This document shows, piece by piece, positions 7,058-17,616 of a stretch of 17,616 bases of DNA (positions are counted from its first letter, which is position 1; each line of letters opens with the position of its first letter). A program made the position numbers and the translations under genes. The notes below the pieces were generated by a model that searched no databases, had not been told where the DNA came from, and was given only the letters and a program-made list of their open reading frames with translations. Origin of the DNA: a virus (Duplodnaviria > Heunggongvirae > Uroviricota > Caudoviricetes); the IMG/VR virus record IMGVR_UViG_2713896768_000001, positions 1-17,616 of that record. One strand, given 5' to 3'.

Positions 7058-9314
7058 CGCAGATACGATTAAAGACTTCCTTGTTTCGCTGGGATTCGAT
7101 ATCGATCAGGCTGGCGCTAATAAGTTTGAAGCCGTGCTGAAAGGCGTTACCGCAAACGTTCTGAAGGTCGGCGCGGTGGTGGAAGGCGCAGCGCTGAGCA
7201 TTGTCGGATTTACCACCCAGATCGCGAATGGTCTGGATAAAATTTACTGGGCATCCCAACGGACGGGGGCCAGCGTCCAGGGCATCAAAGCGCTGGGCTA
7301 TGCCGCGTCGCAAACCGGTGCCAGCGCCGAGTCGGCCATGTCCTCCCTCGAAGGGCTGGCCGGTTTCATGCGTAGCAATCCGGGGGCGGAAGGCTTCCTG
7401 AACCGTCTTGGTGTCCAGACCCGAGATGCCAGCGGAAAGATGCGTGATACTGCGGCCATCTTTACTGGCGTTGGGCAAAAGCTCAACAACATGCCGTATT
7501 ACCGCGCGAAGCAATACGCGCAGATGCTTGGCATCGATGAAAACACGCTGATGGCGATGCGGCGCGGCATGAATGGCTTTACCGCCGATTACCAGTCTAT
7601 GCTGCAAAAGACTGGGTTCAACGCTGATAAGGCGGCTGTGCAGTCCAATAAATTCATGACGTCCATGCGCGGGCTTACGTCGCTGTTCGGCATTATGCGG
7701 GACAAGATCGGCTCAAACCTCGCTGGTGGTCTTGCTGGTTCGCTGGACAGCCTGCGGCGGCGCATCCTCGACAACTTCCCGAAGATTGAAGAGACGCTGA
7801 CCAGAGTTATTAAAGGCGTGATCTGGCTTGCGAACGCCTTCACGCGAATGGCGTGGCGGCTCATACAGGGCGCTGGCTCTGTCATTGACTGGTGGAAGCG
7901 TCTTGACGATGGCAGTAAAAATCTGCTGAAAATATTCGGTGCTCTACTTGTCGCATGGCGTCTGCTTAATTCTGCGTTCCTGAAATCCCCGATTGGAATT
8001 ATCACCACGCTGATTCTGGCGATCGGATTACTCTATGACGATTATCAGACGTGGAAAGAAGGCGGTAAAAGCCTGATTGACTGGTCCAAGTGGGAGCCTG
8101 CAATAGAAAAGGCGAAAAAGGCAATTCTCTGGCTGCGCGATAAGCTTCTGGGGCTGAAAGATTCTGTTGGTGGATGGCAGAACTCGCTGGAAATTTTGGC
8201 TACTTTCATCGCTGGGGTATGGGTAACAAAAGTATTGGGAGCATTCGCAAAAATATCCGGTCTTCCGATACCTCCATGGCTTAAATTATGGGGAGCGTAT
8301 GCTGGTTACCTGGTTTCAGATCGTGAAAACATAAAAGCCAGTGCTAAATCATCTTTGGACTATACCAAAAGGAACATTGGTGATGCTCTTGCTACGGTTG
8401 GCATCAAAACCGACCTTGGGCGAAAAGATGTTAGCGAGGTAAGAGAATGGCCCGCATGGATGGATTGGCTGCATGGTGGCCCAGGTAAGATTATTCGTCA
8501 GGCGCAAAGCAATGGCGTCGTTTATGGCGATAATGTTCAGCCTGACATTCCCGGGGCGGAACAGCATGTTCGTAGTAATGAAATTGCCCCGCATGAAAGA
8601 GATGAAATAAAAAACCGTCAGCAGGCTGCTAATGGTTATCTTGAAAAAATCTCAGACGGGATTGCCAAAATCGGTAATTTATTTTTCTCCCCGGCTGGAG
8701 CTGCTGAAATCTCTCCAAATATATCGGGTGACCCCTCCCAGTTTGCGCAATCAGTCAAACGTCCACAGGCCACAGCCCAGGGCAAAGTATTGCTCGACTG
8801 GATGGGGCCAATGTTCAATAAACTTGAGTCGCTTTATCAACTTCCAGCTGGTCTATTGAAAAGTGTGGCGATAACCGAGTCAGGTGGTAACCAGTTCGCC
8901 ATGTCCGGCGCGGGTGCAAAGGGGCTGTTCCAGTTCATGGATGGCACGGCGCGAGACATGGGCCTGCGTGGTAACGATGTGTTCGACCCGGAAAAGTCAG
9001 CTCAGGCAGCCGCTAAGTACCTTAGCCAGCTATTGCGGCAGAACGGCGGAGACCTTAGCAAAGCACTTGCATCATATAACTGGGGAATCGGGAACGTTCA
9101 ACGTTATGGAATGGGGCTAATGCCGCAGGAAACGCGCAATTACATTCCGAAAGTAATGAGCAATATGCCCACCAGCGCCCCGGTGATTCAGCAGGAAACG
9201 AACATTAACATCCACGGCGTTTCCGATCCTCGCGAAGCTGCCCGTTTGACTGTTGACCGTCAAAAGGGTGTGAATTCACAGTTAACCCAGCAACTCCCCG
9301 CAGGACCGAGATAA
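7047..9314 (+). CDS. Tail tape measure protein with C-terminal soluble lytic transglycosylase (SLT) domain
   Basis: 755-aa ORF following the chaperone. Alpha-helical Ala/Gly-rich N-terminal region, a hydrophobic central segment (…LLKIFGALLVAWRLLNSAFLKSPIGIITTLILAIGLLY…), and a C-terminal SLT signature (…AITESGGNQFAMSGAGAKGLFQFMDGTARDMGL…ASYNWGIGNV…) with the catalytic-type Glu in the E-S-G-G motif near 8877. Confidence 0.75.
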   Translation: MSGNADTIKDFLVSLGFDIDQAGANKFEAVLKGVTANVLKVGAVVEGAALSIVGFTTQIANGLDKIYWASQRTGASVQGIKALGYAASQTGASAESAMSSLEGLAGFMRSNPGAEGFLNRLGVQTRDASGKMRDTAAIFTGVGQKLNNMPYYRAKQYAQMLGIDENTLMAMRRGMNGFTADYQSMLQKTGFNADKAAVQSNKFMTSMRGLTSLFGIMRDKIGSNLAGGLAGSLDSLRRRILDNFPKIEETLTRVIKGVIWLANAFTRMAWRLIQGAGSVIDWWKRLDDGSKNLLKIFGALLVAWRLLNSAFLKSPIGIITTLILAIGLLYDDYQTWKEGGKSLIDWSKWEPAIEKAKKAILWLRDKLLGLKDSVGGWQNSLEILATFIAGVWVTKVLGAFAKISGLPIPPWLKLWGAYAGYLVSDRENIKASAKSSLDYTKRNIGDALATVGIKTDLGRKDVSEVREWPAWMDWLHGGPGKIIRQAQSNGVVYGDNVQPDIPGAEQHVRSNEIAPHERDEIKNRQQAANGYLEKISDGIAKIGNLFFSPAGAAEISPNISGDPSQFAQSVKRPQATAQGKVLLDWMGPMFNKLESLYQLPAGLLKSVAITESGGNQFAMSGAGAKGLFQFMDGTARDMGLRGNDVFDPEKSAQAAAKYLSQLLRQNGGDLSKALASYNWGIGNVQRYGMGLMPQETRNYIPKVMSNMPTSAPVIQQETNINIHGVSDPREAARLTVDRQKGVNSQLTQQLPAGPR

Positions 9315-9916
9315 TGGATATTTTATCAGCGATTTTTCGCCAGCAATCACGGCGAATTGGCCTGCTGATCCCCAGCGTGGTCGTTTCCGAAAAGCATTCT
9401 GATGCGCTCGAAATTACTGAGCACCCGGTGGAGAAGCCAACAACGAATAGCGCCTCGGGTTTCATCGCCGATCATGCGTATAAGCGCCCCAGCGAAGTCA
9501 CAATGGAATGCGGCTTCGCTGGGGGCGGTTCGTTGCTGGACTTCATTGATACATCTTCAATCGGCCTCAGCGCCGGACTGAGCCCGAAAGAGACCTATCA
9601 GCAACTGCTGGATCTCCAGTCCTCCCGGGTGCCGTTCGATGTGGTGACCGGGAAGCGGGTGTACAGCAATATGCTGGTGAGAGCCATCGAGGTGACAACG
9701 GACAAAACCAGCGAGAACGTGCTGAACTGCACGCTTACCCTGCGTGAAGTGATCATGTCGCAAACGCAGAGCGTTAGCGTTGCTGATAAATCAGATATGC
9801 AGGATGGCGTCAGCACATCGGCGGTGCAAAATTCCGGGACGAAATCCACTACACCGCCAAACGAATCTTTGCTGAGCCAGCTGGGCGGAAGCGTTACATC
9901 AGCATTCGGGGGATGA
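9314..9916 (+). CDS. Baseplate-associated protein (position of the Mu gp43/N-like protein; hypothetical)
   Basis: 200-aa ORF whose start overlaps the tape measure stop (TAATG at 9312-9316). Assignment is by synteny with a Mu-like baseplate cluster only. Confidence 0.4.
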   Translation: MDILSAIFRQQSRRIGLLIPSVVVSEKHSDALEITEHPVEKPTTNSASGFIADHAYKRPSEVTMECGFAGGGSLLDFIDTSSIGLSAGLSPKETYQQLLDLQSSRVPFDVVTGKRVYSNMLVRAIEVTTDKTSENVLNCTLTLREVIMSQTQSVSVADKSDMQDGVSTSAVQNSGTKSTTPPNESLLSQLGGSVTSAFGG

Positions 9917-9917
9917 T

Positions 9918-10223
9918 ATGCAGTTTAACGAAATACCGCTTTCTCCTGACAATCAGCAGTTCCGCGTTTTGCTGGGCAATACTACGTATACGCTCAGGAT
10001 CATCTGGCGCGATGCGGCTGGTTGGATTATGGACGTGATGGATAGCGGCGGTGCCGCGCTTCTCTCTGGCGTACCTCTACTGACCGGCGTGAACCTTTTA
10101 CGACAATTTCCACAGCTTGGCATTGATGGTGCGCTGGTGGTGGCGACCGATAAGGGCGCACCAGACGAGCCCACCAAAACCAACCTCGGCACATACAGCC
10201 ACCTCATTTTCGTGCAGGAGTAG
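9918..10223 (+). CDS. Small baseplate/tail protein (hypothetical)
   Basis: 101-aa ORF starting 2 nt after the previous stop; placed by synteny between tape measure and hub genes. Confidence 0.4.
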   Translation: MQFNEIPLSPDNQQFRVLLGNTTYTLRIIWRDAAGWIMDVMDSGGAALLSGVPLLTGVNLLRQFPQLGIDGALVVATDKGAPDEPTKTNLGTYSHLIFVQE

Positions 10224-10225
10224 AA

Positions 10226-11290
10226 ATGTCTCTTAACTGGATGCGCCATTTTGAGTTGCAGCTGTTGGACCAGAACGGGCAGGGTATTTCCCTGTCTGAT
10301 TTTAAGGTCACGTTCCAGATCGAGTGGGCAGATACACGCTGGCCGCGCGTGGCAAACGTGAAAATTTACAACCTTTCGACCGATACCACGAACAAGATAC
10401 TGGGGCAGGAGTTTGCAAAAATTCGCATCATTGCCGGGTATGACGGTATTGCGCCGGATGTTGATGCGAGCCAGGTTGGTGTCGCCCGGGAGATTTCACC
10501 AGACCAGGTAGGGCAGGTGAACGGTCAGAACTACGGCCTGATATTTGACGGTGATATTCGCTTCACCGTCACCGGGAAGGACAACATCACCGATTCCTGG
10601 GTGCTGATTCAGGCCATCAGTAACCACGAAGCGTTCCTCTACGCGACTACCATCACCACGCTTGCCGCTGGCTATACCGTTGCGGATCTGCACCGGGCGA
10701 CGATGCAGGATTTCAACGCGTTCGGCGTGACACAGGGCATTACCGGCGATTTTCCTGATACCGTGTTTCCTCGTGGCCGCGCGATTTACTCATCCAGCCG
10801 CAACGTGATGGATAATATTGCTGCGCAGTGCAAAGCGACATGGCAACTGGTGGATGGTCAGGTCCAGATGGTGCCGGAGGATAAATATATTCACGAAGCC
10901 ATTGTGTTGAATGCCAATACTGGCCTGATCGGTATGCCGCAACAAACGATGGGCGGCGGAGTAAACGTGCGGTGCCTGATAAACCCAAACATCCGTATTA
11001 ATGGTCTTATCCAGCTCGATCAGGCTTCGGTGTACCGCGCCGCGCTCGGCAATAGCGAAATCGCACAGTCGCCCGGGCGTATCACTGAAACGGAAGAGAA
11101 CGGCAACCGCGCACTGACCGGCACAACGTCACAGGCTGCCAGCATTGCGACAGATGGCGTTTATATCGTCAAAGCTATCGACTATACTGGCGACACCAGA
11201 GGTCAGGCGTGGTACATGGATTTGATGTGTTTTGCGCGTGGTGCTCGTGAAATGGTTAGTCAGGACACGCTTAAAAAATGGCAGGTATAA
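10226..11290 (+). CDS. Baseplate hub protein (P2 gpD / Mu gp44-like)
   Basis: 354-aa ORF with an AGGAG RBS. Size and position after tape measure and before the spike gene match the hub of P2/Mu-type baseplates. Confidence 0.55.
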   Translation: MSLNWMRHFELQLLDQNGQGISLSDFKVTFQIEWADTRWPRVANVKIYNLSTDTTNKILGQEFAKIRIIAGYDGIAPDVDASQVGVAREISPDQVGQVNGQNYGLIFDGDIRFTVTGKDNITDSWVLIQAISNHEAFLYATTITTLAAGYTVADLHRATMQDFNAFGVTQGITGDFPDTVFPRGRAIYSSSRNVMDNIAAQCKATWQLVDGQVQMVPEDKYIHEAIVLNANTGLIGMPQQTMGGGVNVRCLINPNIRINGLIQLDQASVYRAALGNSEIAQSPGRITETEENGNRALTGTTSQAASIATDGVYIVKAIDYTGDTRGQAWYMDLMCFARGAREMVSQDTLKKWQV

Positions 11291-11291
11291 G

Positions 11292-11642
11292 ATGGGTAAG
11301 GCCAAACTTCTAATTTGTGGTGTTCTTTTATCAGTTGTCGGCACGTCAGAGGCCTTAGCTGATACTCAGTGCGGGCCGTATCGCCTCACTGCGGGCAAAG
11401 AAGGACTAATGCTTATTAACGGGGTAAAACCTGAAACGCAAAAAATGTCTTTTCTCAAGTCTAAAGATGACTACCAAAACATGAAAGCAGAATGGATGGT
11501 TGCAACCGACCAACCCGGCCGCTGGGTTGGGCTTGAGTACATCAAGCGCAACGGCAAAGCCATTCTCAACGCACAGTGGTTGCAAGCCAGCATGGATTCG
11601 CCGCGTCAGTATGCAACATACGACTGCGTGAAGGTGAAATGA
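11292..11642 (+). CDS. Small exported protein with Sec signal peptide (accessory moron gene; function unknown)
   Basis: ATG at 11292, 2 nt after the hub stop, with an AGGT RBS. N-terminus MGKAKLLICGVLLSVVGTSEALA|DTQCG… has a basic n-region, hydrophobic core and A-L-A signal peptidase I site, with no lipobox. The mature protein is about 94 aa with two Cys. By eye it is AT-richer than flanking tail genes and it interrupts the conserved hub-spike adjacency. Confidence 0.55.
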   Translation: MGKAKLLICGVLLSVVGTSEALADTQCGPYRLTAGKEGLMLINGVKPETQKMSFLKSKDDYQNMKAEWMVATDQPGRWVGLEYIKRNGKAILNAQWLQASMDSPRQYATYDCVKVK

Positions 11643-11659
11643 TGATCCGCATCCTTAAA

Positions 11660-11724
11660 CATCAATAATCGTTGATCTCGCGTTTTTATTATGCACTAAT
11701 CTGTACATGTACAGAGAGGGTGCC
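11660..11724 (+). promoter_or_regulatory. Putative promoter/operator of the toxin-antitoxin operon, including a perfect 14-bp palindrome CTGTACATGTACAG (11701-11714) and a GAGAGGG Shine-Dalgarno
   Basis: 82-nt AT-rich intergenic region. The palindrome was checked by reverse complement and abuts the RBS. A weak sigma70-like pair is possible (TTGATC at 11672-11677, ACTAAT at 11695-11700, 17-nt spacer). Palindromic operators bound by Phd/YefM antitoxins are established for this family. Confidence 0.45.
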
Positions 11725-12138
11725 ATGAAAATCATTACTTACACGCAAATGCGATCGGATTTATCTGCAACGCTGGACTGTTTACGCTCTGGTGAAAGCG
11801 TCACAGTTACGCAGCGCGGAAAGCCCGACCTTGTCATCAGTGCAAAATCAGTTGATGAAATCGCTTCCGCAGATGAGGTAAAAACATCTGCGAAAACAAT
11901 AGACACGCATCTTGCGCAATTAATTGCATCGAATTTGTCACCACAGATAACGGAGGGTGTCATGAAGCTTACTAAGCAATTGGATGCCCTTCTTCAGTCT
12001 GATGAGGCTCGCCAGACTATGATGAAGGCCACTAATGCAGCAGTTGCTTTGCAGGGCGTGTCTGAGTCATTTATCAAAGCTCTGCAACATACTCAGACCA
12101 AGCATGCGGACATCATAAAAAAACTGGAAGATAAGTAA
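11725..12138 (+). CDS. Phd/YefM-family antitoxin with an extended helical C-terminal domain (137 aa; typical Phd/YefM is about 75-90 aa)
   Basis: N-terminus MKIITYTQMRSDLSATLDCLRSGESVTVTQRGKPDLVISAKS matches the YefM/Phd N-terminal fold (compare remembered YefM [41 protein letters not shown]). The ATG at 11725 with a GAGGG SD is preferred over the track start at 11707, which lies inside the palindrome. The stop overlaps the toxin start (TAATG). Confidence 0.7.
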   Translation: MKIITYTQMRSDLSATLDCLRSGESVTVTQRGKPDLVISAKSVDEIASADEVKTSAKTIDTHLAQLIASNLSPQITEGVMKLTKQLDALLQSDEARQTMMKATNAAVALQGVSESFIKALQHTQTKHADIIKKLEDK

Positions 12139-12545
12139 TGACTGAGATTACATTCCTTTCGGTAGATGAGGTCATCGCTATTCAGAAGAGCACATTGCCA
12201 AATAGCGGACAACCAGACCGGGGAAAACTCGAAGGTGCCCTCAATCGCGTCGATAACTTACGCATGTATGAAGGATGTGAGGATTTATTTAAATTTGCAG
12301 CTATGTACATGGTTGCGATAGCGAAGTCTCACGCTTTTAATGACGCCAATAAGCGAACGGCTTTCCAGGCCGCCAGCGTGTTTTTGCTTTTGAATGGCTA
12401 TGAACTGAATACCTCAATGGAGTTAGTCAAGCTGACCATCTTTGCTGCTACGGGAGAGGCCGACTGCGATAACACTGCTTTGGCGCTTAAACTTTTGTCA
12501 GATTATAAGAATGAGCTGCTGGCAGATACGATAACTGGCTACTGA
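12138..12545 (+). CDS. doc: Doc (death-on-curing) / Fic-family toxin
   Basis: 135-aa ORF translationally coupled to the antitoxin. It contains the Doc signature H-x-F-x-D-A-N-K-R (SHAFNDANKRTAFQAASVFLLLNGY, codons at about 12330-12356), compared with remembered P1 Doc …GHIFNDANKRTALNSALLFLRRNG…. Confidence 0.8.
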   Translation: MTEITFLSVDEVIAIQKSTLPNSGQPDRGKLEGALNRVDNLRMYEGCEDLFKFAAMYMVAIAKSHAFNDANKRTAFQAASVFLLLNGYELNTSMELVKLTIFAATGEADCDNTALALKLLSDYKNELLADTITGY

Positions 12546-12567
12546 TAGCAAAAAGTAAATTGTACAC

Positions 12568-12592
12568 AACCCGCCGCCGAGCGGGTTTTTTT
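12568..12592 (+). terminator. Rho-independent terminator (stem ACCCGC / GCGGGT, loop CGCCGA, followed by a T7 run)
   Basis: Read directly: aacccgc-cgccga-gcgggtttttttat, 23 nt after the toxin stop and just before the RBS of the spike gene at 12604. Confidence 0.65.
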
Positions 12593-12603
12593 ATGGAGTT
12601 TTT

Positions 12604-13344
12604 ATGCCAATTCCAACTCAATCACAGATCGGCGGCGAGCAGCAGACCGCGCAGGCCATAGCCGATTCGGTGTCTACCCAGATGCGCGTAGCGATGCCAG
12701 GCATCATTCAGTCGTTCGATCCTGACGCTGTAACCTGCACAGTAGAAGTGGCGCTTCGCGGTATTGTTGGCGACGGCTCCACCGAATTAAAACCGCTGGT
12801 GGATGTTCCTGTCATCTTCCCGCGCGGCGGCGGCTGCACGCTGACCTTTCCGGTTAAAGAAGGCGACGAGTGCCTGCTGCTCTTTGCCGACCGTTGCATC
12901 GATTTCTGGTGGCAGAGCGGCGGCGTGCAGGAGACCGTCGACCCGCGCCAGCATGACTTATCTGATGCGTTCGCCATCGTTGGCCCACAGTCGCAAGCAC
13001 GGAAAATCAGCGGTATCAGTACCAGCGCCGCGCAGCTGCGAACCGATGATGGTGCGGCGTTTGTAGAAGTCGCCGCAGGACATAACATCACCATTAAAAC
13101 ACCGGGCCAGCTTACAGCTACGGCTGAAGGTGGAACGACAATCACATCCCCGACTATCACGCTGAACGGCAACGTAACGATTAATGGCAACTTGTCTCAG
13201 GGAATGGGCGAAAGCGGCGGTACTGCGACGATGCTTGGGCCGGTGACGGTAACGAATGACGTAACAGCTTCTGGTATCAGTGTCGCCACGCATAAACATG
13301 GCGGAGTACAGACTGGCGGGGGAACTACCGGAGGGCCGCAATAA
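12604..13344 (+). CDS. Baseplate central spike protein (P2 gpV / Mu gp45-like) with C-terminal beta-helix and His-x-His tip
   Basis: 246-aa ORF with a GGAG RBS. The C-terminal region is Gly/Thr-rich and repetitive (…TITSPTITLNGNVTINGNLSQG…) and ends …VATHKHGGVQTGGGTTGGPQ (HKH at 13291-13299), matching the iron-binding apex motif known for spike proteins. Confidence 0.6.
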   Translation: MPIPTQSQIGGEQQTAQAIADSVSTQMRVAMPGIIQSFDPDAVTCTVEVALRGIVGDGSTELKPLVDVPVIFPRGGGCTLTFPVKEGDECLLLFADRCIDFWWQSGGVQETVDPRQHDLSDAFAIVGPQSQARKISGISTSAAQLRTDDGAAFVEVAAGHNITIKTPGQLTATAEGGTTITSPTITLNGNVTINGNLSQGMGESGGTATMLGPVTVTNDVTASGISVATHKHGGVQTGGGTTGGPQ

Positions 13345-13697: not shown

Positions 13698-14897
13698 ATG
13701 GCTTTGAACCTCGACACGCTGGGGCTATCGGCAACGGTAACCGCCCAGGGGATTAGTGCGCCTGATTACCAGACAATCCTTGATACACTGACCAGCTATT
13801 TCAGGCAGATTTACGGTAGTGATGCCTACCTAGAACCAGACAGCAAAGACGGGCAGATGGTCGCGCTGGTGGCTCTTGCCGTGCATGACGCTAACAACAC
13901 CGCTATCGAGATTTACAACTCGTTTTCACCGATGACAGCGCAGGCCGCAGCGCTTAGCAGCAATGTGAAAATTAACGGGATCACGCGAAAAGTAGCGACA
14001 AACTCTACTGCTGACCTTCTGTTAACCGGTACGGCAGGCACGACTATCACGAATGGCTCCGCACGGGATAAAAACGGCATTATCTGGAATTTTCCAGCGA
14101 GTGTGGCGATCGGCGTTGATGGTACTGTGCTGGTGACGGCCACATGTGCGAATAGCGGTTCGGTTGCGGCGCTGGCCGGGACTATTACCACTATCAACAC
14201 CCCGACCCGAGGTTGGGTGTCGGTAACCAATCCAGTTGCGGCTACTGTCGGTTCACCAGCCGAAACCGACGCAGAGCTGCGCATTCGGCAGGGGCAAAGC
14301 GTCGCGCTACCATCGATCACACCGTTTGAAGGTGTCGACGGTGCTATCGCTAATGTTGCTGGCGTGACACGTCACAAACTATATGAGAACGACACTGGGG
14401 CAACCGACAGCAACGGGCTGCCGCCACACTCTATTTCCGCCATCGTCGATGGAGGGGATGTTACCGAGATAGCCCAGACCATCAGGGGGAATAAAGGGCA
14501 GGGAACGGCAACCTACGGGACAACTTCTGTCACAGTGCCGGATACTTACGGTAATCCTCACGTCATCAGTTTTTCACGCTCTACCGATGTGCCAATTTTC
14601 GTAGCCATTACCCTGAAAGTTTTTACCGGGTATACATCTCAAATCGGCGAGCAGATCAAACAGGCTGTTGCCGACTATATTAATGGCCTGACAATTGGCG
14701 ACGACGTTCTGCTGAGCCGTATTTATTCCCCGGCAAACCTCGGCGTTGTGAGCGGCGGGAATGCCCGCTATTACGATATTACCGACCTGCTGATCGGTAA
14801 GTCGTCTGGCAGCGTATCGGCATCAAACATTGATATTGCCTATGATGCTTCAGCGTCCTGTAGCACCGCGAATATCAGTATCACGGTGACCTCATGA
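13698..14897 (+). CDS. Baseplate J-like protein (P2 gpJ / Mu gp47 / T4 gp6 family)
   Basis: 399-aa ORF starting right after the previous stop; size and synteny are typical of baseplate J. Confidence 0.6.
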   Translation: MALNLDTLGLSATVTAQGISAPDYQTILDTLTSYFRQIYGSDAYLEPDSKDGQMVALVALAVHDANNTAIEIYNSFSPMTAQAAALSSNVKINGITRKVATNSTADLLLTGTAGTTITNGSARDKNGIIWNFPASVAIGVDGTVLVTATCANSGSVAALAGTITTINTPTRGWVSVTNPVAATVGSPAETDAELRIRQGQSVALPSITPFEGVDGAIANVAGVTRHKLYENDTGATDSNGLPPHSISAIVDGGDVTEIAQTIRGNKGQGTATYGTTSVTVPDTYGNPHVISFSRSTDVPIFVAITLKVFTGYTSQIGEQIKQAVADYINGLTIGDDVLLSRIYSPANLGVVSGGNARYYDITDLLIGKSSGSVSASNIDIAYDASASCSTANISITVTS

Positions 14898-15574
14898 GCA
14901 AATACACCGAACTGATCACTAACTACCACGCTACCAAGCCACTCTTTTTTGACCATATAGATCTGAGCACCCGCCCGCTGATTGATGTGTCCAGCACTAT
15001 GTCAGGGCTTATAACAGCCTTCGATATCGATACTGCTGTCGGTGTACAGCTCGACATCCTCGGTCTGTGGATCGGACGCAGTCGCATAGTCAGCCAGCCA
15101 ATTAGCGGAGTTTATTTCAGCTGGGACACTGACGGGCTTGGGTATGACCAGGGCATCTGGCAAGGGCCATATGATCCTGATTCTGGCTATACGACGCTAA
15201 GCGATGAGACGTACCGCATCATTCTGAAAGCGAAAATCGCTATCAACAACTGGGACGGTCGGAACGACTCTCTGCCTCCCATCCTTGACGCTGCTACCGC
15301 AGGCTCAGGCCTGAGGATGCAGATCGTCGACAACCAGGACATGACGATTTCGGTCTGGGTTTCCCCTGAAACTGATATTTCTGATGTGTCTCTCGAACTG
15401 ATCGCCGCTATCAAACAGGGCTATCTCACCGTTAAATCAGCTGGCGTATGGGCCGGTGATGTTGAAACGCCTTCGGTAGAAACACCGTCAGAAGGCTCTA
15501 AATTCTTTGGGTTTGATATGGATAACGAATACATCGGCGGGTTCGATGTTGGAGCATGGGGGACAATACTCTAA
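14894..15574 (+). CDS. Baseplate/tail protein (P2 gpI / Mu gp48-like, DUF2612-type)
   Basis: 226-aa ORF with ATGA overlap to the J-like gene; positioned immediately upstream of the tail fibre gene. Confidence 0.5.
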   Translation: MSKYTELITNYHATKPLFFDHIDLSTRPLIDVSSTMSGLITAFDIDTAVGVQLDILGLWIGRSRIVSQPISGVYFSWDTDGLGYDQGIWQGPYDPDSGYTTLSDETYRIILKAKIAINNWDGRNDSLPPILDAATAGSGLRMQIVDNQDMTISVWVSPETDISDVSLELIAAIKQGYLTVKSAGVWAGDVETPSVETPSEGSKFFGFDMDNEYIGGFDVGAWGTIL

Positions 15575-16515
15575 TGGCAATAAACAACTTTAAACCTTTC
15601 GCGCTTGATCCGAACGCTAACGTCACCTCACAAGCTGACTGGGAAGCACTTCCGGCTCTGCTTTCAGGGTTTACGGCAGGTAAAGCATCCAGCGCACAGG
15701 TCAACAAAGCCATTCGACAGGCCAGCTTTATTGCGGCAGCGCTTGCGCAGTACACAGCCAACAAAAGTGGGCTGGACGTGCTTGATGATGGTGACCTGAA
15801 CGGCTTTATCTCCAAAATGGGAACCGCTTTCGGGAAGGATTTCCAGGCACTTGATGCCACGCTGACGGCATTGGCAGGGCTCGCAACAGGTGAAAATAAA
15901 CTCCCGTATTTCACTGGAAATGATACAGCAGCGCAGACTGATTTAACTTCTGTCGGCCGCGACATTATTGGTAAAAGCACTATTGCTGACATTCTCACAT
16001 ACCTTGGTTTGGGAGAAGGCTCTGCATTACCTGTCGGTGTGCCTGTTCCGTGGCCTTCCGCCACTCCGCCGACAGGCTGGCTAAAATGCAATGGTGCGGC
16101 TTTTTCTGCTGAAGAATACCCGGAACTGGCAAAGGCTTACCCGACAAATAAATTGCCTGATTTACGCGGTGAATTTATTCGTGGCTGGGATGATGGGCGT
16201 AGTGCGGATGCGGGGAGAACAATATTATCCGCTCAGGGCGATGCCATACGTAATATCTATGGTGAGTTCAAGACTGTAAACACCGAAAATTATTCAATAT
16301 GGGAAGTAGCAAGCTCGTTTAAGGGAGCAGTGGTGCCTTTGAGTCCCTCTACAAACAATAGTTATTTCTCCTTAACCAGAAGTATGGTGACAGAAAGGTC
16401 CGAGGGCGGTGTTTACCCAAAAGTGATTGGCCTTGATGCTTCAAGAATTGTTCCAACTGCAAACGAAAATCGACCCCGTAACATTGCCTTTAATTATATC
16501 GTGAGGGCTGCCTGA
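15574..16515 (+). CDS. Tail fibre protein with C-terminal phage tail-collar domain; the C-terminal about 170 aa lie inside the invertible segment
   Basis: The ATG at 15574 overlaps the upstream stop (TAATG); the track start at 15556 is 6 codons upstream in the same frame. The collar-type motif …PVGVPVPWPSATPPTGWLKCNGAAFSAEEYPELAKAYPTNKLPDLRGEFIRGWDDGR… and the ending …RPRNIAFNYIVRAA are typical. A hix/gix-like site sits at codons around Tyr-Leu-Gly-Leu-Gly-Glu. Confidence 0.7.
   Translation: MAINNFKPFALDPNANVTSQADWEALPALLSGFTAGKASSAQVNKAIRQASFIAAALAQYTANKSGLDVLDDGDLNGFISKMGTAFGKDFQALDATLTALAGLATGENKLPYFTGNDTAAQTDLTSVGRDIIGKSTIADILTYLGLGEGSALPVGVPVPWPSATPPTGWLKCNGAAFSAEEYPELAKAYPTNKLPDLRGEFIRGWDDGRSADAGRTILSAQGDAIRNIYGEFKTVNTENYSIWEVASSFKGAVVPLSPSTNNSYFSLTRSMVTERSEGGVYPKVIGLDASRIVPTANENRPRNIAFNYIVRAA
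15992..16017. other. Left crossover site for a Gin/Hin/Pin-family DNA invertase: TTCTCACATACC-TT-GGTTTGGGAGAA
   Basis: Two 12-bp half-sites in inverted orientation (10/12 matching) around a 2-bp core, with 17/26 identity to the remembered gix site TTCCTGTAAACCGAGGTTTTGGATAA. An inverted copy appears at the window end, and a visible composition change begins near here. Confidence 0.6.
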
Positions 16516-17120
16516 TGGATAAAGCTATATTAAATAAGGAACTCATCGCCACAAAGGCGGGAGATATTACCGTTTATAATTATGATGGTGAAACACGAGA
16601 ATATATTTCCACATCAACCGAATATCTTGCTGTGGGTGTCGGTATCCCGGCATGTTCCTGTTTAGATGCTCCTGGCTCATATAAAGCTGGTTATGCAATT
16701 TGCCGTTCTGCAGATTTTAACTCATGGGAATATGTGCCAGACCATCGCGGTGAAATCGTCTATAGCACCGAAACAGGAGAATCAAAAGAAATCACAGCTC
16801 CGGGTGATTACCCTGAAAAGACAACCACTATCGCCCCGTTAACGCCATACGATAAATGGGATGGTGAGAAATGGGTGACGGATACCGAGGCACAGCATAG
16901 AGCAGCAGTAGACATGGCAGAAACACAGCGGCAGTCGCTGATTGATGCTGCAATGGTTTCCATTAGTCTGATTCAACTGAAATTGCAGGCCGGGCGGAAG
17001 CTGACGCAGGCAGAAAACACCCGACTTAACGCCGTGCTGGATTACACTGACGCGGTGATGGCAACAGATACCAGCACCGCGTCAGATGTCATCTGGCCAG
17101 TTCCTCCTGAGACGGTTTAA
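16515..17120 (+). CDS. tfa: Tail fibre assembly protein (Tfa)
   Basis: 201-aa ORF whose start overlaps the fibre stop (TGATG). The C-terminus …LNAVLDYTDAVMATDTSTASDVIWPVPPETV matches the conserved Tfa C-terminal pattern seen in lambda/P2/Mu-type assembly chaperones. Confidence 0.7.
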   Translation: MDKAILNKELIATKAGDITVYNYDGETREYISTSTEYLAVGVGIPACSCLDAPGSYKAGYAICRSADFNSWEYVPDHRGEIVYSTETGESKEITAPGDYPEKTTTIAPLTPYDKWDGEKWVTDTEAQHRAAVDMAETQRQSLIDAAMVSISLIQLKLQAGRKLTQAENTRLNAVLDYTDAVMATDTSTASDVIWPVPPETV

Positions 17121-17376
17121 TCTCAATCAGAATGGGTTCTCCCTTCTCGTTAACAGATATTTCCATTCCTTCAGGGATTTCAGATGCAGTAAAAAACCAG
17201 TTATCTTCTGGTAATTCAACAGCCCCGGTCACGTCATGAAGACCGGGGATTACTTCAGTCAAAGTAACAGGATTAAACAGGCGCACAATAAACCCTCCAG
17301 GAAAAAGCACTTGTTGATGGTGTTCCGTCGTACATCTGGCAGCGGACATAAAAACCGGTATTAGTGACCTGGTCAT
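17089..17376 (-). CDS. Minus-strand ORF downstream of the alternative fibre domain: possible short tfa' or frame-disrupted remnant
   Basis: 95-aa track ORF, but its first 34 codons overlap the Sv' reading frame and no convincing RBS/start follows the Sv' stop. Its 3' end overlaps the + strand tfa by 32 nt. It ends …EIKPSQEELAR. Coding status is uncertain. Confidence 0.25.
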   Translation of the reverse strand: MTRSLIPVFMSAARCTTEHHQQVLFPGGFIVRLFNPVTLTEVIPGLHDVTGAVELPEDNWFFTASEIPEGMEISVNEKGEPILIEIKPSQEELAR

Positions 17377-17616
17377 CCACGATCATTGAAACGTGAACGT
17401 TATTAGATGTGCCCCCATAATCCGTTCCTATTCTTTCCGCTATGCTGATAAAACGTGAAAGCTTAGGTAGCGCAATTGGATAAACGACTTTAGCCAGTCC
17501 ATTATCATTAGAACCCCCCGTTCCAAAGACTTCTATTGCACCATCTGACCAGCGTATCCACGCACCATTGGCATTAGCTCCTCGCTGAATGACATATCTG
17601 GCTTCTCCCAAACCAA
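17273..17616 (-). CDS. Alternative tail fibre C-terminal variable domain (Sv'-like), 5'-partial: open to the window edge, silent in this orientation
   Basis: The - strand frame is open from the window end to the stop at 17273-17275. The track start is a TTG, and the reading frame continues through the crossover site in the same frame as the fibre constant region. Confidence 0.5.
   Translation of the reverse strand, partial: GLGEARYVIQRGANANGAWIRWSDGAIEVFGTGGSNDNGLAKVVYPIALPKLSRFISIAERIGTDYGGTSNNVHVSMIVDDQVTNTGFYVRCQMYDGTPSTSAFSWRVYCAPV
17603..17616. other. Right crossover site for the invertase, truncated by the window end (TTCTCCCAAACC-AA…)
   Basis: The last 14 nt of the window are the exact reverse complement of 16004-16017 (TTGGTTTGGGAGAA), i.e. 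the first half-site plus core of an inverted copy of the left site. The rest would lie beyond the window. Confidence 0.55.

Follow-up and report, generated by a model that had tools for sequence, protein, structure and literature searches.

The window analysed here, the whole stretch of 17,616 nucleotides in a Caudoviricetes record (IMG/VR IMGVR_UViG_2713896768_000001), carries a contractile-tail module in the order sheath, tube, chaperone with a -1 frameshift site, tape measure protein (TMP), Dit-like baseplate protein, plug and hub. The open reading frame at 7047-9314 encodes the TMP of a SEN34/Brunovirus-like temperate myophage that resides as a prophage in E. coli. The DNA of the gene is 100% identical to that in E. 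coli strain TOK-001, whose product (WP_029403911.1) is labeled SLT-domain-containing in RefSeq. The features of the locus are collected in Table 1.

Table 1. Features of the tape measure gene and its neighbors, in window coordinates.
Feature	Position	Strand	Basis
Tail assembly chaperone gene, 141 aa	6444..6869	+	Pfam Phage_TAC_15, E=4.4e-33
Candidate -1 programmed frameshift heptamer A_AAT_TTT	6815..6821	+	Read from sequence
Chaperone -1 frame extension (DUF6889 part)	6822..7057	+	Frame translation; overlaps TMP start
TMP gene, 755 aa	7047..9314	+	ORF list, PHROG 2276, SEN34 homologue
Conserved N-terminal TMP module, aa 1-350	7047..8096	+	Comparison with eight relatives
Hydrophobic segment 1, aa 293-330, candidate membrane-inserting helix pair	7923..8036	+	Kyte-Doolittle
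Low-GC3, hypervariable central module, aa 351-575	8097..8771	+	GC3, identity drop, indels
Hydrophobic segment 2, aa 381-401	8187..8249	+	Kyte-Doolittle
Family-1 lytic transglycosylase (SLT, GH23) domain, aa 567-706	8745..9164	+	Pfam SLT, AlphaFold, Foldseek
Predicted catalytic Glu611 codon (GAG), TESGG motif	8877..8879	+	Alignment with T7 gp16 and Slt70
GLFQFM, SLT motif II (G-L-x-Q)	8922..8939	+	Alignment of 64 sequences
ASYNWG, SLT motif III (A-x-Y-N-x-G)	9069..9086	+	Alignment of 64 sequences
Conserved C-terminal tail, aa 710-755 (~46 residues)	9174..9311	+	Family motif; helix prediction
Dit-like baseplate protein	9314..9916	+	Pfam Dit_like, E=7.4e-31
Baseplate plug (Pam3 gp18-like)	9918..10223	+	Pfam Pam3_gp18, E=1e-24
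Baseplate hub candidate	10226..11290	+	Pfam E217_GP41, E=4e-6, 26.6 bits, cut-off 27

A tape measure gene in a SEN34-like tail module

The TMP gene lies 3′ of a frameshifting chaperone and 5′ of the baseplate genes, and its stop overlaps the start codon of the Dit-like gene. Upstream, the -1 frame is open from the heptamer through nt 7057. In the identical prophage, RefSeq names the first-frame product "phage tail assembly chaperone", while in relatives "DUF6889 family protein" is annotated at the position of the extension. For Klebsiella phage Mulock, the chaperone homologue is annotated with the joined frameshift product. Downstream, the SEN34 homologue of the hub candidate is annotated "baseplate hub". 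Toward the window's 3′ end, a search for inverted repeats flanking an invertible tail-fiber segment gave only one weak, irrelevant pair, and such a segment probably extends beyond the window.

The assignment of the gene as a tape measure, made at first from the letters of the DNA, is supported by its position, by the annotated SEN34 homologue and by a full-length match to PHROG 2276, "tail length tape measure protein" (E=7e-220), although PHROG names derive from annotation and not from experiment. The Pfam PhageMin_Tail model matches weakly (20 bits, cut-off 33.2). Alternatively, the protein could be an ejection and lysin protein of the tail lumen, with tail length set otherwise or by its N-terminal part only. 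Besides the sub-threshold Pfam score, this would be in keeping with the natural variants, which range from 638 to 857 aa among relatives whose tube, chaperone and N-terminal modules are near-identical (Mulock, 638 aa; SEN34, 669 aa; this prophage, 755 aa; strain CUPF09, 857 aa), and with the globular SLT, Enc34-type and Phage_lysozyme2 cassettes described below, which are unable to serve as a helical ruler. However, the ORF list of the tail module holds no other long ORF, the gene occupies the canonical place after a frameshifting chaperone, PHROG TMP families match it over the full length, and the density of the homologous gp41 of Pseudomonas phage Pa193 sits in the tail lumen. This alternative is considered unlikely.

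The closest described phage is SEN34 (Salmonella phage, Brunovirus); it is temperate, and electron microscopy shows its tail to be contractile (PMC5261728). Its TMP (YP_009191622.1) stands in the same gene order, has a homologous N-terminal module (44-88% identity per 50-aa window), and carries the same SLT cassette (90-96% amino acid identity) and the same C-terminal motif. It differs in its central module, which is shorter, unrelated and GC3-rich. Hafnia phage yong1 and prophages of Klebsiella and Enterobacter encode further homologues.

The lytic transglycosylase domain

An SLT-type motif series, TESGG…GLFQFM…ASYNWG, had been noticed near the end of the protein, and it is found where it was placed, in the frame of ORF 7047-9314 (TESGG at nt 8874-8888). 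Pfam SLT (PF01464) matches aa 589-689 with E=1.2e-24; the score of 86.6 bits, where the cut-off is 21.3, is far above chance level. The core of the domain is modeled by AlphaFold with pLDDT of 96-98, and Foldseek matches it with probability 1.0 to MltD, Slt, MltF, MltE, MltC and T7 gp16; the predicted fold is lysozyme-like and all-helical. The initial annotation called the domain C-terminal, at 8800-9170. Its presence and region stand, yet the confidently modeled core (aa 567-706) begins a little before nt 8800, at 8745, and is subterminal, with the stop codon 49 residues further on.

E611-S612 aligns with E37 of T7 gp16 and with E478-S479 of Slt70; E37 and E478 we take, from established literature, to be catalytic. 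Glu occupies position 611 in all aligned homologues (63/63). Neither of the two findings named beforehand as refuting the domain, a profile search with no SLT match or an alignment lacking the catalytic Glu, was obtained. Within motif II (GLFQ, aa 626-629), G626 is invariant and Q629 is kept in 62/64 sequences; within motif III (aa 675-680), all 64 sequences have Y677, N678 and G680. The dN/dS of the domain is 0.016-0.020 at dS of 0.41-0.51, and the domain is under strong purifying selection. Other frames around 8800-9170 contain short ORFs, for instance 78 aa at 8884-9120 on the plus strand and 60 aa at 8636-8818 on the minus strand; lying inside a gene under such selection, they are read as chance.

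By alignment and model, a family-1 lytic transglycosylase domain is present and intact, with Glu611 as the predicted catalytic residue. It is conceivable that the domain is catalytically inert and serves as a structural or peptidoglycan-binding part that holds the tail tip on the sacculus but does not cut it, since some virion lysin domains have structural roles too (review PMC6116005). The Glu-Ser pair and motifs II and III, however, are intact and invariant in homologues down to ~30% identity, dN/dS is ~0.02, and the alternative cassettes of relatives likewise keep a catalytic Glu, there in a HENG motif. A non-cutting domain is accordingly very improbable.

Another assignment that was considered is the endolysin of the prophage. 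This was rejected because the identical prophage has a lysis cassette of its own, annotated as separate holin, lysozyme and Rz-type genes. With an SLT domain within a tail-module gene and a separate endolysin, the protein is a predicted virion-associated lysin (VAL/VAPGH), a class for which TMPs are a recognized site (PMC6116005).

The same fold and catalytic motifs are found in E. coli Slt70 and MltC/MltE and in P. aeruginosa MltD, Slt and MltF. Those are housekeeping periplasmic enzymes or lipoproteins with accessory domains of their own, whereas here a cassette of ~140 residues is built into a predicted virion protein. Among phage proteins, Pa193 gp41 (PDB 9B45), the TMP of another myophage, likewise has its SLT domain in the interior: of its 858 residues, 491-582 make up the domain and 840-858 bind the tail tip (PMC11456595). 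Alignment of the two SLT regions (E about 1e-9) puts the catalytic Glu in register, the baseplate and capsid components encoded in the window are of the same E217/Pam3-type set as those of Pa193, and both proteins have a C-terminal helix after the enzyme. Outside the SLT domain, gp41 has no significant similarity to the TMP; its SLT ends about 275 residues from the C-terminus and not 49, and Pa193 is a virulent Pbunavirus while the phage here is temperate. T7 gp16 (PDB 7EYB, 6YT5, 7K5C) is also an ejected virion protein combining an SLT domain with an envelope-spanning function. Its fold matches and its E37 aligns with E611, but it is a core protein internal to a podophage capsid, has the SLT domain at its N-terminus and is not a tail ruler. 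Small peptidoglycan-degrading modules that are dispensable yet helpful for entry also lie within the tape measures of mycobacteriophage TM4 and phage T5 (Pb2) (PMC1796659, PMC6116005), and the muralytic motif of the TM4 TMP helps infection of stationary-phase cells (PMC1796659). TM4 and T5 are siphophages, however, and their enzymes are of other families (Rpf-like or motif 3; Pb2). By analogy with T7 gp16, the TM4 TMP and Pa193 gp41, we infer that the SLT domain would cleave peptidoglycan at entry.

Hydrophobic segments and the mosaic central module

The N-terminal module is kept in all eight relatives compared, with 40-100% identity, and phmmer finds it in 4531 cluster representatives (E<1e-3). 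Full-length AlphaFold modeling of the TMP (15 close homologues) gave pLDDT of 34.9, too low for use, with DSSP mostly helical. A long hydrophobic stretch had been proposed in the central, AT-richer part of the gene. The hydrophobicity is real, but it resides in two short segments and overlaps the AT-rich part only partially. Segment 1 (Kyte-Doolittle 19-residue peak of 1.98 at aa 311-329) belongs to the conserved N-terminal module, and its hydrophobicity is kept in SEN34, 606R2 and Mulock. Segment 2 (peak of 1.84 at aa 383-401) recurs only in LR-71-1 and 606R2, the relatives that have this central sub-module too. The remainder of 8300-8900 codes for hydrophilic sequence.

Between about 7950 and 8850, windowed GC is 0.45-0.48, down from 0.55-0.59. 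The AT-richer region first placed at 7900-8900 therefore exists, though the low-GC module itself is narrower, nt ~8100-8770. At nt 8097-8770 the GC3 is 0.30-0.46, while the window's other genes have a GC3 of 0.595 +/- 0.105. Across the same module, protein identity with the eight relatives collapses, indels are present, and DNA identity breaks at ~8070-8130, ~8430-8490 and ~8730-8790. The module is shared piecewise with E. coli LR-71-1, E. coli CUPF09 and phage vB_EcoM-606R2. In the phage collection, the sole megablast match to the TMP gene was Citrobacter phage Omnitron, over nt 1-515, so that at the DNA level the central module is shared by no sequenced phage in that collection.

A low GC content could in principle follow from amino acid composition (hydrophobic, Lys- and Ile-rich) or from local mutational bias, with no mosaicism involved. 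The region does code for hydrophobic helices, and GC2 is slightly lower in places. Nevertheless, the drop occurs mainly at third codon positions (GC3 from 0.68 to 0.38, with GC1 and GC2 nearly unchanged), the equivalent position of SEN34 has a GC3 of 0.74-0.82, the low-GC3 patch moves with the sub-module common to CUPF09, and sharp junctions of DNA identity flank it. On GC3 and the comparison with relatives, the compositional explanation was rejected; the probability left to it is minimal. Variants of the central module do not all have low GC3, and identity breakpoints exist; both points were checked. The module-wise comparison and GC3 agree on the mosaic origin that had been suspected, and the central module is an exchangeable, indel-rich module.

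Exchange of cassettes and a proposed model of ejection

Domain architectures of the family were surveyed in the best 150 of ~4500 representatives. In relatives that share the N-terminal module and the C-terminal tail, other domains stand in the SLT position. For instance, an Enc34-type PHA02564 muralytic domain (PMC8943055) occupies it in some (match to PDB 7Q47, E=3e-9, with the Glu of HENG kept), and Pfam Phage_lysozyme2 in 46 of the 70 scanned. Inspected per domain by hmmsearch, every real SLT and Enc34-type match is subterminal. The tail motif forms the extreme C-terminus in 95/135 full-length representatives (from the best 150 of ~4500), whichever cassette precedes it, and a helix is predicted at aa 728-749 within the tail. 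Judged from these architectures, at least three non-equivalent muralytic cassettes, the SLT domain among them, are interchangeable and appear to have been placed in one slot by recombination. By analogy with Pa193 gp41, the C-terminal tail is probably an anchor to the hub or tip.

Taken as a whole, it is highly probable that the gene encodes the TMP of a SEN34-like prophage, composed of four parts with an intact SLT domain; the protein would be ejected and cut peptidoglycan. The parts would be a conserved, mostly helical region with a hydrophobic helix pair at its end (aa 1-350), a hypervariable low-GC3 module with a second hydrophobic helix (aa 351-575), the intact transglycosylase with its predicted Glu611 (aa 567-706), and the conserved 46-residue tail. 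The course of ejection and cleavage can be pictured as follows. In the virion, a TMP trimer, largely extended, would occupy the tube lumen, with its C-terminal tail held by the complex of hub, plug and spike. Three folded SLT domains abreast would not obviously fit in the lumen; in the virion the domain would have to be stacked or else unfolded. Sheath contraction would push the gpV-type spike across the outer membrane, and after departure of spike and plug the TMP would be ejected into the periplasm with its C-terminus leading. There the SLT domain would fold and cut MurNAc-GlcNAc bonds locally, leaving 1,6-anhydro-MurNAc ends and opening the sacculus, and the hydrophobic helices would enter the inner membrane and help to build a conduit for DNA. 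The enzyme is probably accessory and may count most against dense or heavily cross-linked peptidoglycan, for instance in stationary phase or at low temperature.

An SLT domain in a TMP is an ordinary, common arrangement in phages and is already annotated. By itself it is of low significance, since TMPs with SLT domains are already recognized as one class among the virion-associated lysins and the RefSeq entry for the identical protein is so labeled. A more speculative reading, which we hold tentatively and consider rather doubtful at present, is that the site between ruler body and C-terminal anchor is a dedicated exchange slot for at least three enzymes, that entry is tuned to the wall chemistry or physiological state of the host both by which enzyme is present and by the hypervariable, membrane-active central module, and that the length polymorphism of ~220 residues between tails that are near-identical otherwise reflects a partial ruler.

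The TMP could be a clean model for how a globular enzyme is carried in a contractile tail tube and refolds after ejection. It could likewise serve as a model for whether tail length, host range or entry under stress changes with alternative cassettes and central modules. Both questions are directly testable in the natural series, which spans 638-857 aa and three types of cassette.

Tape measure gene and its prophage neighbourhood

The tail module holds only one long ORF (7047–9314), whose product is matched over its full length by PHROG 2276 ('tail length tape measure protein', E=7e-220). Two caveats attach to this identity: the Pfam PhageMin_Tail profile scores below threshold, and the AlphaFold model of the full-length tape measure protein (TMP) has a pLDDT of only 34.9. 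Near its end, the tail assembly chaperone gene carries a canonical X_XXY_YYZ heptamer, A_AAT_TTT (6815–6821, +), from which the −1 frame is open for about 80 codons to 7057, ending 10 nt inside the TMP gene. In RefSeq this extension, named DUF6889, is a small ORF of its own and not part of a joined product; for the Mulock homologue, the annotation does give the joined frameshift product. The order of chaperone, frameshift and TMP is the classic arrangement.

The window covers the structural genes of an E. coli prophage. The chromosomes of E. coli TOK-001 and strain 81 contain the 2,268-nt ORF at 100% identity, and 41 of the 5,426 complete E. coli genomes searched have related copies. Besides lambdoid early genes, the TOK-001 element, which adjoins yciI-tonB-trp, has terminase, head and contractile-tail genes and a lysis cassette (holin, lysozyme, lysis protein). 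Among characterised phages the closest is SEN34 (a Salmonella phage, Brunovirus), which is temperate, has early genes resembling those of lambda and shows a contractile tail in EM (PMC5261728). A head cement protein of the E217 gp24/Pam3 gp6 type and a DUF2184-type major capsid protein are encoded at 1067–2523; together with the Pam3 gp18-type plug, these link the virion module of this enterobacterial prophage with the structural lineage of E217, Pa193 and Pam3. The early genes of the prophage are lambdoid.

Between the hub and gpV spike genes, a low-GC island (11250–12600; GC about 0.45, GC3 0.44–0.50) encloses a Phd/YefM-like antitoxin (11707–12138, +; weak Pfam match) and a Fic/Doc toxin (12138–12545, +); the pair is a toxin-antitoxin cargo (moron) carried within the tail module. 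Only 2 of the 5,426 E. coli genomes have this entire context, and in relatives the site is occupied by a DUF4236 gene on the reverse strand. Just 3′ of the hub gene, an ORF of 136 aa (11232–11642, +) is without a Pfam match; it is listed with a TTG start, the true start perhaps lying later, and its TOK-001 equivalent in the same place is a 114-aa hypothetical protein. The tail-fibre end (16200–17616; GC 0.42–0.49), with genes on both strands, resembles the alternative half of an invertible segment of fibre genes. A serine recombinase adjoins this segment in the related TOK-001 prophage, and no bounding inverted repeat was found inside the window.

Features of the window and homologues of the tape measure protein in relatives
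Feature	Location	Strand	Basis or remark
DUF3383 sheath	4829–5989		Pfam
KPP10_Orf10 tube	6000–6440		Pfam
Tail assembly chaperone	6444–6869		Pfam
Dit-like protein	9314–9916		Pfam
Pam3 gp18-type plug	9918–10223		Pfam
E217 gp41-type hub	10226–11290		Pfam, weak
gpV-type spike with Apex motif	12604–13344		Pfam
Baseplate J	13698–14897		Pfam
Tail fibre and fibre chaperone genes	3′ of baseplate J		Pfam
Collar-domain fibre	15556–16515	+	
gpK-type fibre chaperone	16515–17120	+	
95-aa ORF	17089–17376	−	
gp53-like fibre C-terminus	17273–17611	−	
TMP homologue, CUPF09	L007 1501–4074		compared with window 7047–9314
TMP homologue, LR-71-1	L008 1501–3513		compared with window 7047–9314
Enc34-type (PHA02564) TMP homologue, vB_EcoM-606R2	L002 3980–4480		
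Enc34-type (PHA02564) TMP homologue, Mulock	L003		
Enc34-type (PHA02564) TMP homologue, Omnitron	L006		

The lytic transglycosylase domain

The initial annotation had placed a lytic transglycosylase (SLT) motif near the end of the TMP, and TESGG (nt 8874–8888), GLFQFM (8922–8939) and ASYNWG (9069–9086) are indeed all found in the translation of this ORF. Residues 589–689 match Pfam SLT (PF01464) with E=1.2e-24 and 86.6 bits, the cut-off being 21.3 bits. A PDB sequence search retrieved P. aeruginosa MltD, the Pa193 tape measure gp41, T7 gp16 and Slt70, and the predicted catalytic Glu611 (codon 8877–8879) lies opposite E37 of T7 gp16 and E478 of Slt70, the established catalytic residues of these enzymes. 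In an alignment of 64 homologues reaching to about 30% identity, the glutamate is kept in all 63 that span the column, and G626, Y677, N678 and G680 are invariant. The AlphaFold model of aa 517–755 has a core (aa 567–706) at pLDDT 96–98, which Foldseek matched to MltD, Slt, MltF, MltE, MltC, LtgA and T7 gp16 with probability 1.0. Against E. coli relatives, aa 576–706 show a dN/dS of 0.016–0.020 (dS 0.41–0.51), and the region is therefore under strong purifying selection. Neither of the outcomes that would have spoken against the initial annotation, a profile search without an SLT hit or an alignment lacking the catalytic Glu, was obtained. The SLT-like domain is unlikely to be an inert binding domain, since the catalytic motifs are intact and invariant and dN/dS is about 0.02.

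During entry, contraction and loss of the spike would be followed by exit of the TMP, C-terminus first. The SLT domain would fold in the periplasm and make local cuts in glycan strands; the hydrophobic helices may add to a conduit in the inner membrane. The TMP motif of phage TM4 is dispensable, yet promotes infection of stationary-phase cells (PMC1796659), and virion-associated lysins are known to reside in TMPs (PMC6116005); an E611Q substitution would therefore be expected to delay entry conditionally and not to be lethal.

Modules and exchangeable cassettes

Comparison with eight relatives, including SEN34, yong1, Omnitron, Mulock, vB_EcoM-606R2 and the E. coli prophages of LR-71-1 and CUPF09, divides the TMP into four parts: aa 1–350, aa 351–575, the SLT cassette and the final ~46 residues. 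The first part, containing a hydrophobic segment (aa 293–330) and the YDDYQTWKEGGKSLIDW motif, is kept in all relatives compared. The last (QQxTxxIxG..DP...RQ..N.Q) is conserved regardless of the upstream domain; in 95 of the 135 full-length representatives of the family it lies at the very C-terminus. Residues 351–575 are hypervariable, and indels give proteins of 638–857 aa across relatives. Among E. coli prophages the TMPs are 670, 755 and 857 aa long with N-terminal modules at 94–100% protein identity, and the length difference lies entirely within aa ~351–575. Because of the 638–857 aa polymorphism, part of the protein may be a non-ruler ejection protein; nevertheless, a tape measure is the better reading given the position of the gene, its profile matches and the precedent of Pa193.

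The central module is composite, aa ~351–460 resembling LR-71-1 and vB_EcoM-606R2, and aa ~476–575 (90–96% identity) being common only to CUPF09 among the eight. DNA identity changes at ~8070–8130, ~8430–8490 and ~8730–8790. The centre of the gene is AT-richer, as first read by eye: GC drops to 0.45–0.48, and GC3 to 0.30–0.46 across nt 8097–8770 versus 0.595 ± 0.105 in other genes, with GC1 and GC2 nearly flat. A compositional artefact is excluded by the GC3 values and the identity breakpoints. Since the central module of SEN34 has a GC3 of 0.74–0.82 and the low-GC3 patch goes along with the sub-module common to CUPF09, low GC3 is a property of the module and not of the position. The long hydrophobic stretch claimed by the initial annotation resolves into two short segments whose Kyte-Doolittle values peak at 1.98 (aa 311–329) and 1.84 (aa 383–401); the first belongs to the conserved module and is not in the low-GC part.

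Against LR-71-1 and CUPF09, dS is 0.41–0.51 in the SLT cassette (8772–9164), 0.13–0.15 in the N-terminal module and 0.09–0.19 in the C-terminal tail. This roughly threefold excess suggests that the cassette too has a separate history, and gives a hint of another recombination boundary around it.

Three relatives, vB_EcoM-606R2, Mulock and Omnitron, share the N-terminal module and C-terminal tail but have an unrelated domain of ~130 residues in place of SLT. [quoted passage not shown] No Pfam model detects it, and such TMPs are therefore labelled either 'hypothetical' or, in error, 'tape measure chaperone'. With aa 1–350 as the query, 1.84 billion cluster representatives yielded 4,531 relatives at E<1e-3. 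Among the best 150 of these, SLT occurs in about 17–21 and the Enc34-type domain in 28, always subterminally. Phage_lysozyme2 (PF18013) occupies the same slot in 46 of the 70 other, more distant relatives scanned from these 150 (proteins P0257–P0361 of the family alignment A4), and no recognised domain was found there in the remaining 24. Judged from these sequences, SLT is one of several interchangeable cassettes.

Muralytic domains on TMPs are textbook virion-associated lysins. RefSeq labels the identical protein WP_029403911.1 'transglycosylase SLT domain-containing protein'; thousands of homologues bear this label too, and in SEN34 the homologue's annotation is tape measure. The finding of SLT in this TMP is correct but ordinary. 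A limited literature search found no description of the three-way cassette exchange or length polymorphism in this TMP family, which are mildly interesting. That three muralytic folds occur independently in one slot is the best indirect evidence obtained here for peptidoglycan degradation as the job of the slot.
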